DNA of 2,519 bases from Escherichia coli (GCF_003334355.1 NZ_QOWP01000074.1); one strand, 5' to 3'; counted from the stretch's first letter, positions 1,228 through 2,170 are shown. Notes: generated by a model from the letters alone, not told the origin. Made by a program: numbers and translations.

Positions 1228-1255
1228 TTTTGATGCGATGCAGGATAGGGCTAAC

Positions 1256-1280
1256 GCCGCAAAGTGACGTCATTTGCGGC
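1256..1280. repeat. Near-perfect 25-bp palindrome GCCGCAAA-G-TGACGTCA-TTTGCGGC between the convergent mob and 76-aa ORF ends.
   Basis: The outer 8-bp arms are exact reverse complements and the central TGACGTCA is itself palindromic. No U-tract follows on either strand, so it is not a canonical intrinsic terminator. It could be a protein-binding site, a structure-dependent transcript end, or a single-strand initiation or resolution signal. Confidence 0.5.
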
Positions 1281-1296
1281 ATTCACCACGAAAAAA

Positions 1297-1527
1297 TTAA
1301 TCATTCAGATGGTAATCATGTTTTTTTAAAATAGAAAAAGCTGCGTTTTTCTGCTTTGGTGACAAACCCTTAGTTGAGTATTTATTACCGCTAGTTCTAC
1401 GATATATGCTGTAAACACTGCTTAAAAAAGTACGCTCCCAAACAGTCAGAACCTCATTCTTTTTTAGTGAATCATGCAGCATTAGCCTGTCTACATTTTT
1501 AAAAAGTTTATCTTCAGCATTCATCAT
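1297..1527 (-). CDS. Hypothetical small basic protein (76 aa) of unknown function, probably co-transcribed with rep.
   Basis: The ATG-ATG start (1527-1522) overlaps the last 14 nt of rep in another frame. A GAAGG Shine-Dalgarno motif lies about 6 nt upstream on the - strand. Composition matches rep, and the stop is TAA at 1297-1299. No family recognised; the protein is Lys/Ser-rich. Confidence 0.4.
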   Translation of the reverse strand: MMNAEDKLFKNVDRLMLHDSLKKNEVLTVWERTFLSSVYSIYRRTSGNKYSTKGLSPKQKNAAFSILKKHDYHLND

Positions 1528-2017
1528 CCATTACCTTCGTCTGCACCGTTCTTCCATTGGTGTCATAACTGATCTTTAACTCAATTTTCTTTCTTCTTTC
1601 GTAAATTGATGGCCAGTCTCCCCGTGCAAAAAGAAAGGGGTTAGCTTCAAGTTCCCCACGCCCTGCCCGGAAGAATATTTGTTTATCTACAAGAGCCGCA
1701 ATTATGTTTTTAAAGGTCTGATATTCAATATGAACCCTGGGCTGTATGGTTTTTTCAAATCTAGTTTTTGATACAGACACAAACCCATCCCATCCAATCA
1801 GCATTGCCAATTGTAAAAGCACATCATTTTGAGATTTTGATAAACCATGAATCATCGCAATGTCTGCAATGTATAGCTTGACGTAGGGAGGTTCGGCTGG
1901 GATGGAAAAGGTCTCGATCTTAGAGTCTTGTTTTACCTCACCGTTTTCATCCATGTATGTATGCCGTTCAAGCCTAGAAATCTTTTTCGTATTCACTCCA
2001 GCCCCACGTTTCGCCAT
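1514..2017 (-). CDS. rep: Putative plasmid replication initiator (small, 167 aa, iteron-associated). Family not securely recognised; possibly a small RepL-like or winged-helix Rep.
   Basis: The ORF sits directly downstream, on its own strand, of a 22-bp iteron array and an inverted-repeat operator that reuses the iteron core. Its central segment (PPYVKLYIADIAMIHGLSKSQNDVLLQLAMLIGWDG) looks like a helix-turn-helix or winged-helix DNA-binding region. AT-rich codon usage matches the surrounding replication module. The function is assigned from context, not homology. Confidence 0.7.
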   Translation of the reverse strand: MAKRGAGVNTKKISRLERHTYMDENGEVKQDSKIETFSIPAEPPYVKLYIADIAMIHGLSKSQNDVLLQLAMLIGWDGFVSVSKTRFEKTIQPRVHIEYQTFKNIIAALVDKQIFFRAGRGELEANPFLFARGDWPSIYERRKKIELKISYDTNGRTVQTKVMDDEC

Positions 2018-2060: not shown

Positions 2061-2074
2061 GTCCTTTGCATCAA

Positions 2075-2170
2075 GTACGATTAGTACTTGAGGTGAGTAC
2101 GATTAGTCCTTGAGGTGAGTACGATTAGTACTTGAGGTGAGTACGATTGGTACTTGAGGTGAGTACGATT
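2075..2170. repeat. Iteron array: four complete 22-bp direct repeats (2075-2096, 2097-2118, 2119-2140, 2141-2162) plus a partial fifth copy (2163-2170). Likely Rep-binding sites of the vegetative origin.
   Basis: The unit GTACGATTAGTACTTGAGGTGA is exactly tandem with 22-bp (two helical turn) periodicity. Copies 1 and 3 are identical; copy 2 has one change (A to C at 2108) and copy 4 one change (A to G at 2149). The array lies immediately upstream of the rep promoter region. Confidence 0.9.

Follow-up and report, generated by a model that had tools for sequence, protein, structure and literature searches.

What does a short palindrome do that lies between two convergent genes of a small plasmid, where base composition changes abruptly? 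An earlier note on this DNA had offered three candidate roles, namely a site for a dimeric DNA-binding protein, a site for multimer resolution or recombination, and a single-strand initiation hairpin. We consider it likely that the palindrome forms the inverted repeat within an orphan copy of an IncX/R6K-family oriT, which would equip the plasmid with a second oriT beside its MobV system and whose nick position and activity are predicted by comparison with known oriTs.

The palindrome and its host plasmid

The window, that is, the whole stretch of 2,519 nucleotides that was analyzed, repeats its bases 1-77 at 2443-2519 and therefore represents a circle of 2,442 bp. It is a circular enterobacterial plasmid that combines a relaxase module with mobV and a replication module of the iteron type (Table 1), and near-identical plasmids (99.8-99.9%) occur in E. 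coli, Klebsiella, Salmonella, Shigella, and Enterobacter. On the minus strand, the 76-aa ORF and the putative 167-aa initiator overlap by 14 nt (1514-1527), and both are annotated as hypothetical in the databases although the plasmid is common. The iterons are followed by an AT-rich ATATCTATATCTATATATTAAGG stretch at 2205-2235; iterons and AT-rich stretch, placed beside the 167-aa ORF, likely form a theta-type origin. Directly upstream of the start of this ORF (2017, minus strand) lies an inverted repeat with 9-bp arms, TTTAGTACTCGCATTTAAGTACTAAA, at 2020-2045, which contains an AGTAC motif that is also found in the 22-bp iterons and which may be an autoregulatory operator. Further on, at 2240-2280, two 18-nt direct repeats, CTGAAAAACGGCATTTTT and CTGAAAAACTGCCTTTTT, are spaced 23 nt apart, each with a short inverted repeat.

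Table 1. Coordinates, strand, and supporting evidence for the features of the window
Feature	Position	Strand	Basis
Candidate cognate MobV oriT: overlapping inverted repeats TAGTG-AGTA-CACTA-TCATCCTGA-TAGTG	165-192, ~70 bp upstream of mobV		Perfect inverted repeat at 174-192
mobV, the plasmid's own MOBV relaxase	259-1227 (alternative start 238)	+	NCBIfam NF041497 MobV, 162 bits versus cut-off 100; ORF list
Whole IncX/R6K-type oriT-like element: nick region and inverted repeat	~1231-1284	- (predicted transferred strand)	54-nt query, 2,521 PLSDB plasmids
Nick motif 5'-TATCCTGC-3'	1240-1247	-	Exact match to the MOBP consensus (C/T)ATCCTG(C/T); same as RP4 TATCCTGC
GGGCTAAC, nick-proximal outer arm remnant	1248-1255	-	Homologous to IncX outer-arm GGGCAAACG, one change
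Palindrome, putative oriT inverted repeat (hairpin)	1256-1280	-	Sequence and folds; arms kept with mutated core in L139, L140, and L005; two-sided arm changes in L101, L006, and L014
76-aa ORF	1297-1527	-	Pfam and NCBIfam profile searches: no family match
167-aa ORF, putative initiator	1514-2017	-	Pfam and NCBIfam profile searches: no family match
Four tandem 22-bp iterons, AGTACGATTAGTACTTGAGGTG	2074-2170		

The palindrome, GCCGCAAAGTGACGTCATTTGCGGC, is not perfect over its 25 bp: perfect 8-bp arms (1256-1263 and 1273-1280) enclose an unpaired G (1264) and the core TGACGTCA (1265-1272), which is itself a self-complementary octamer of 8 bp. With this qualification, the 25-bp palindrome with a central core that the earlier note had placed between convergent genes is present. 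Its distances from these genes shorten slightly: it begins 28 nt rather than 29 nt after the mobV stop codon, which ends at 1227, and lies 16 nt instead of about 17 nt beyond the stop of the 76-aa ORF (1297-1299, minus strand). The GC-composition boundary that had been noted here is confirmed as well, the GC fraction of 100-nt intervals being 0.48-0.51 up to 1201-1300 and 0.35 from 1251-1350.

In first-order Markov simulations of the 2,442-bp circle, one or more 8-bp perfect inverted repeats with a spacer of at most 12 nt arise in 33% of the simulated circles (mean 0.5), and the window contains four distinct 8-bp perfect inverted repeats; 8-bp arms with an 8-bp palindrome between them, as in the window, arise in only 6 of 2,000 simulations. 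The evidence that the palindrome exceeds chance is its conservation in relatives.

Relation of the element to IncX oriTs

Queries centered on the palindrome (181 nt, then 54 nt) delimit a widely shared part of only ~50 bp, at about 1231-1284 of the window. In PLSDB, the 54-nt query matches 2,521 plasmids, which by typing comprise 1,555 conjugative, 636 'non-mobilizable', and 330 mobilizable ones; absence from all relatives, which the earlier note had named as an outcome that would refute its reading, is clearly not what is found. The left edge of the element (TGATGCGATGCAGG...), which starts 4 nt past the mobV stop codon, is common to unrelated small plasmids, and its right edge at 1284 marks the end of identity to two mobV-linked relatives, L003 and L010. 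To sites in IncX1, X2, and X3 plasmids, identity amounts to 86-95% over 41-51 nt, and to 86-90% where 51 nt align with IncX oriTs. The match in the sampled IncX3, IncX2, and IncX1 plasmids is located ~50-60 bp ahead of ddp1(taxA) and a MobP1-family relaxase, in the same orientation, and a second copy is found just upstream of ddp3, adjoining rep, with most such records showing the match in two places; the IncX2 reference was p615cip, a stand-in for R6K (LT827129), and F-type traI was used in place of R64 (AP005147). For IncX plasmids, two oriTs are described that are embedded in long inverted repeats, the first close to taxC and the second close to repX/ddp3 (PMC3402527; PMC3332091), and oriT_R6K is typically duplicated in MOBP1 plasmids (10.1101/2024.01.30.577996). 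The match sites in the sampled IncX plasmids coincide with both published oriT positions.

On the minus strand, the order of the parts is hairpin, GTTAGCCC, and TATCCTG/C, and the complete element reads 5'-GAAT-(GCCGCAAA TGACGTCA C TTTGCGGC)-GTTAGCCC-TATCCTG/CATCGCATCA-3', where parentheses enclose the hairpin and the slash marks the predicted nick. Known oriTs combine a nick region that is conserved with an inverted repeat immediately upstream that varies more (PMC3772185). The earlier note had not recognized that the palindrome is only the inverted-repeat half of the element and that the other half, 1240-1255, has a nick motif of MOBP type on the opposite strand. The nick is predicted to fall on the minus strand between the complements of 1241 and 1240, a position that rests on the MOBP consensus; a mapped nick site of R6K was not found in the literature searched, in which the sequence strings occurred only in an unrelated figure (PMC6061673). 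When 21 loci are lined up on the shared core, the nick motif is unchanged in 20, the exception being a 1-nt deletion in L005. The core itself, CGATGCAGGATAGGGC[A/T][A/G]ACGCCGCAAA[A/G]TG, is present in the homologous elements of all 21 loci except the divergent L140 and L005 and is common to the IncX oriTs; its complement on the minus strand, ...CAYTTTGCGGCGTYWGCCC-TATCCTG/CATCG, contains TATCCTGC.

The closest known counterparts are oriT-alpha and oriT-beta of IncX plasmids (R6K, pOLA52, pECTm80; TaxC/Ddp2, TaxA/Ddp1), with which the element shares ~40 bp of homology that span the nick region along with that half of the inverted repeat which is closer to the nick. Both have the same TATCCTGC, a hairpin 5' of this motif on the same strand, and the same orientation, the repeat facing the relaxase genes in IncX. 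Unlike its IncX counterparts, however, the window copy is an orphan, single rather than duplicated, on a plasmid that lacks taxA, taxC, and ddp3. It also deviates in two nucleotides of the core (A to T, A to G) and in its whole distal half, which is unrelated in sequence: while IncX oriTs possess a long outer repeat, GGGCAAACG...CGTTTGCCC, that forms a stem of ~24 bp with a variable center, the window has a short hairpin with 8-bp arms around TGACGTCA. The window copy retains the nick motif and both proximal arms, the inner one and, with a single change, the outer one; missing is the distal partner of the outer arm (CGTTTGCCC). In place of the outer distal arm, the window pairs GCCGCAAA with TTTGCGGC around the TGACGTCA center, and the residual outer pairing on the minus strand is weak (AAT/GTT and GGT/GCC). 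Because the window copy is devoid of the distal outer arm, its perfect stem stops 15 nt short of the predicted nick, compared with 7 nt in the IncX loci and with the ~6-8 nt expected of an oriT of this family; only weak extra pairs bring the window to 8 nt. A further parallel is the oriT of RP4 (IncP, MOBP11), in which an inverted repeat is likewise followed by the nick sequence a few nucleotides on, and a 9-nt identity, CTATCCTGC, exists with an RP4 oligonucleotide (PMC3772185). However, outside this motif the two are dissimilar, RP4 has another relaxase subfamily and other accessory proteins, and its perfect stem ends ~8 nt from the nick, as opposed to 15 nt in the window.

Folding is biased toward the strand that carries the nick motif. 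Calculated as RNA, the 25-mer reaches -11.7 kcal/mol with z-scores of -2.8 on the plus and -3.5 on the minus strand, and inclusion of the flanks renders the minus strand clearly more stable (-20.2 versus -14.5 kcal/mol). Folding of the window hairpin as DNA yields -11.0 kcal/mol (z -2.35) on the minus versus -9.1 kcal/mol (z -1.3) on the plus strand, and the IncX3 hairpin has -21.0 kcal/mol (z -4.8) on the nick-motif strand versus -16.2 kcal/mol on the other. It is because of G.T wobbles that the hairpin is stronger on the nick-motif strand.

Beyond IncX plasmids, the core occurs in relaxase-less small plasmids with unrelated replicons, namely Col(MG828), ColRNAI, ColpVC, and rep_cluster_2373, in each of which the sequence diverges in or beyond the distal arm. 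One of them, the 1.5-kb Col(MG828) plasmid L004 (NZ_CP070905.1), has matches at 507 and 542, where a second GCAGGATAG on the opposite strand, 35 bp from the core, may be a nick-like site in inverted orientation. The contigs of a genome collection were scanned with the 15-mer GATGCAGGATAGGGC, a query so short that ~550 chance matches are estimated in the 298 Gb, and among the first 120 loci listed only 8 are real (L042, L068, L078, L094, L098, L101, L104, and L116). Four of these loci (L042, L094, L098, and L116) are tiny contigs of 231-1,700 bp labeled Streptomyces capoamus, Rhodosalinus sediminis, Kineobactrum sediminis, and Vogesella urethralis; the core in these non-enterobacterial assemblies is likely contamination by enterobacterial small plasmids.

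We further analyzed with which conjugative systems the plasmid shares its hosts, using 5,426 complete E. coli genomes and inclusion-exclusion from single-marker and chimeric joint-query counts. The rep region (29 genomes) and IncX taxC (550 genomes) coincide in 11 genomes where 2.9 are expected (odds ratio 5.5; p = 6.6e-5, one-sided Fisher test), a comparison that is uncorrected for phylogeny and sampling and in which at least 4 of the 29 genomes stem from one IncX3-rich carbapenem-resistance surveillance series (WCHEC). As a control, the rep region (29) and F-type traI (2,839) coincide in 14 genomes versus 15.2 expected (odds ratio 0.85). The ColpVC rep (99 genomes), which goes with the same core, coincides with IncX taxC (550) in 18 genomes versus 10.0 expected (odds ratio 2.0, p = 0.01). 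In strain WCHEC005215, an IncX3 blaNDM-5 plasmid and the small plasmid, here of 2,444 bp, are found together.

Hairpin variation and competing explanations

Conservation of the hairpin was judged from individual folds and explicit pairs, which show that it is kept through sequence change, including change in both arms, in the individual cases L014, L101, L006, L139, L140, and L005. The IncX1 locus L014 has AAATGCTAGCATTT where others have AAATGACGTCATTT, together with the core TGCTAGCA; L101, a 5.3-kb contig of Pantoea eucrina, has CTTCCAAATGACGTCATTTGAAAG with arms CTTCC/GAAAG inside outer arms GGGCAAG/CTTGCCC; and L006 combines outer arms GGGCAGA/TCTGCCC with inner arms of the window type. 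In the MobV-linked relatives L139, L140, and L005, the arms GCCGCAAA/TTTGCGGC are kept while the core is mutated, to TGACGCCA in L139 and to CGAGGTCA in L140 and L005, which favors a hairpin over a protein site specific for TGACGTCA. When ten hairpin variants were submitted to MAFFT and RNAalifold, the 5' arms were misaligned and the consensus structure was meaningless, so that no covariation was counted; such a count is uninformative because the variants differ by indels and form two structural classes. Compared with its 84%-identical relative L140, the element has 5 differences in 54 nt and is only slightly better conserved than its flanks; purifying selection is therefore not demonstrated. 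In L005 (NZ_AP027885.1, 2,046 bp), the nick motif within 410-460 has suffered a 1-nt deletion (GCAG-ATAGGG) with the hairpin arms kept, which reflects either a decaying copy or a homopolymer sequencing error.

The main rival accepts the descent of the element and denies its function: The element would be a true IncX oriT derivative that lost its distal arm and became inactive, and the palindrome would be a by-product of the ancestral TGACGTCA-centered symmetry. The missing outer right arm, the moderate stability of the window hairpin as DNA (-11 kcal/mol, z -2.35), the commonness of 8-bp inverted repeats by chance, the decay of the nick motif in L005, and a conservation that exceeds the flanks only marginally in comparison with L140 all suit such a relic. 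Nevertheless, we judge it unlikely, given that none of the five MobV-linked variants has damaged arms despite the variable loop between them, that the nick motif is intact in four of these five, that the core is kept in many unrelated small replicons, and that co-occurrence is specific to IncX, with none for IncF.

Conservation of the arms with a variable loop in close relatives would fit an RNA hairpin equally well, and a structure-dependent bidirectional transcription stop or RNA-stabilizing hairpin between the convergent mobV and 76-aa ORF would be in keeping with a position shortly past both stop codons (28 nt and 16 nt) and with a calculated RNA stability of -11.7 kcal/mol on both strands. 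Yet we hold it to be improbable: No U-tract follows the stem on either strand and a terminator scan made no call, in agreement with the earlier note, which had pointed out the missing U-tract and had argued against an intrinsic terminator. Moreover, Rfam gave no match at E <=1, the IncX homologue is located upstream of ddp1 and ddp3 and not at gene ends, the contexts in other small plasmids are non-coding, and the conserved adjoining nick motif would be left unexplained. Stopping transcription could still be a secondary role of the hairpin.

The relaxase encoded next to the element deserves consideration as well. Mob_Pre-type relaxases promote site-specific recombination at their oriT, and the element is physically joined to the 3' end of mobV, both in the window and in L003, L010, L139, L140, and L141, as would befit a cognate oriT or a termination or autoregulatory site of the plasmid's own MobV downstream of its gene. 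What makes this assignment very improbable is that most carriers have no mobV, as exemplified by the 1,555 conjugative IncX-like plasmids and many relaxase-less small plasmids, and that a separate oriT-like region upstream of mobV is found almost only in MOBV-typed plasmids: Region 140-240 recurs in 207 plasmids, among them Bartonella grahamii NC_004308, of which 170 are typed as mobilizable and 2 as conjugative. MOBV oriTs normally adjoin the relaxase gene on its upstream side (bioRxiv 10.1101/2024.01.30.577996), whereas the palindrome follows mobV and has its main distribution among IncX plasmids. The overlapping repeats upstream of mobV are probably the cognate MobV oriT, and given this candidate the element at 1231-1284 is best seen as a second, foreign oriT. 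Within the upstream repeats, the loop varies from TCC to TCT in L003 and L141 with the arms kept, and the region also contains ATCCTG.

Strand-biased folding, together with ssi signals that reportedly exist in R6K, might suggest a single-strand initiation hairpin that loads primosome or primase for lagging-strand synthesis. However, typical ssi signals are multi-stem structures of 70-100 nt, in comparison with which the window hairpin is much shorter, the conserved part includes an exact relaxase nick motif, and both the duplication and the place upstream of the relaxase operon match published oriT locations, which leaves little room for this role. Least credible of all is an operator for a dimeric host or plasmid regulator that recognizes TGACGTCA or an Xer-type multimer-resolution site, for although TGACGTCA is a perfect 8-bp palindrome found in many variants and the site sits at a module boundary, the core is exchanged in L139 (TGACGCCA), in L140 and L005 (both CGAGGTCA), and in L014 (TGCTAGCA) with retention of the arms or of the overall symmetry, and XerC/XerD-like arms (11 bp, 6-8 bp apart) are absent near the palindrome, the best plasmid-wide score being 15/22, in the iterons and at ~936, which 29% of simulations reach.

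Among the roles initially proposed, a site for a DNA-processing protein or a hairpin that acts in the single strand thus likely survives, in the service of conjugative transfer and not of priming, whereas Xer sites and dimer sites at TGACGTCA receive no support.

Module junction, proposed transfer routes, and significance

The palindrome had also been placed at the boundary of two modules, which is corroborated by comparison with relatives: Both pECPB39 (mcr-5.3) and the 2,460-bp relatives cease to be identical to the window after 1284, 4 nt past the palindrome. In the 2,460-bp family, window positions 1285-1305 (21 nt) are replaced by unrelated ~50 nt directly after the oriT element, and homology resumes at CAGATGGTAAT. 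The boundary in GC content and modules is real and coincides with the distal edge of the oriT-like element. As a cause of the junction, relaxase-mediated recombination at the nick was considered and rejected: Homology runs ~6-10 nt past the nick on one side and the breakpoints are in or beyond the distal arm, and because they are not at the nick, such recombination fails to explain the junction. In the 5.4-kb pECPB39 (L003, NZ_MG886287.1), the mobV and IncX-type oriT module is identical up to 1284 and is joined to mcr-5.3 and chrB; this colistin-resistance plasmid may have the same two-oriT arrangement.

If the element is an IncX-type oriT, homology and the general MOBP model suggest the following course of transfer. 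In the presence of a co-resident IncX plasmid, TaxA and TaxC would assemble on the site. TaxC (Ddp2, NCBIfam MobP1) would then nick the minus strand after ...ATCCTG, between 1241 and 1240, and remain on the 5' end. The IncX type IV secretion system would export the minus strand in 5' to 3' direction, with the mobV side first and the rep side and hairpin last. Finally, the hairpin at the trailing end and the restored nick site would enable the relaxase to close the circle. What the sequences show directly are the homology, the location of the homologous site in IncX plasmids, the exact nick motif, a hairpin that is conserved through two-sided changes, and the co-occurrence with IncX. The exact nick position and an action of certain IncX subgroups on the site are predictions, and its shortened version may be active but could also be weakened or dead. 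The plasmid thus appears to have two transfer routes, its own MobV with the putative cognate oriT upstream and hitch-hiking on IncX by means of a relaxase supplied in trans.

Related arrangements are known. The relaxase-less 'pOriT' plasmids and the R6K-like oriT family (Ares-Arroyo et al., PMC10123127) resemble the window plasmid in that a small plasmid carries an oriT of conjugative type for which a helper relaxase in trans is presumed; they differ in that the window plasmid encodes MobV and a probable cognate oriT, to which the IncX-type site would add a route. Small plasmids with two oriTs, such as pSe-Kan with a ColE1-type and an F-type site (PMC9282650, PMC8623487), likewise have two unrelated oriT-like sites, one of which mimics that of a conjugative plasmid, but the predicted pair in the window is of MOBV type and IncX type. 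In one study, helpers of IncX1 and IncX4 did not mobilize Col plasmids without mob genes, and those Col plasmids carried other oriT types (PMC8623487).

A more far-reaching reading, which we put forward tentatively and regard as possible at best, is that the element is a remodeled minimal oriT, which rebuilt a shorter hairpin on the ancestral TGACGTCA center after loss of the distal arm, and that a cassette of ~45-54 bp, made up of nick region and proximal arm, was captured independently by at least six unrelated small replicons, each with a different distal arm. Should this be true, the IncX relaxosome would require nothing beyond the nick region, the proximal arm, and a hairpin, whatever its sequence; small plasmids, including those that own a relaxase, would routinely add a second, helper-specific transfer route; and the fixed linkage to the mobV 3' end might define a portable two-oriT mobilization module.

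That orphan oriTs hijack the relaxase of a helper is already established as a concept. In Enterobacteriaceae, IncX plasmids rank among the main vehicles of resistance genes, especially IncX3, which carries blaNDM, and other IncX types, which carry qnr, and if our preferred reading of the element as an orphan IncX/R6K-family oriT is true, a site of 54 bp that opens the IncX relaxase and secretion system to small plasmids would widen the set of plasmids moved by these helpers. The ~640 plasmids with the core that are typed as 'non-mobilizable' would be mobilizable whenever an IncX plasmid is present, and the mcr-5.3 relatives (pECPB39) would be mobilizable by two routes. The natural variants of the element would, in addition, constitute a mutational map of the hairpin changes that the IncX relaxosome tolerates.
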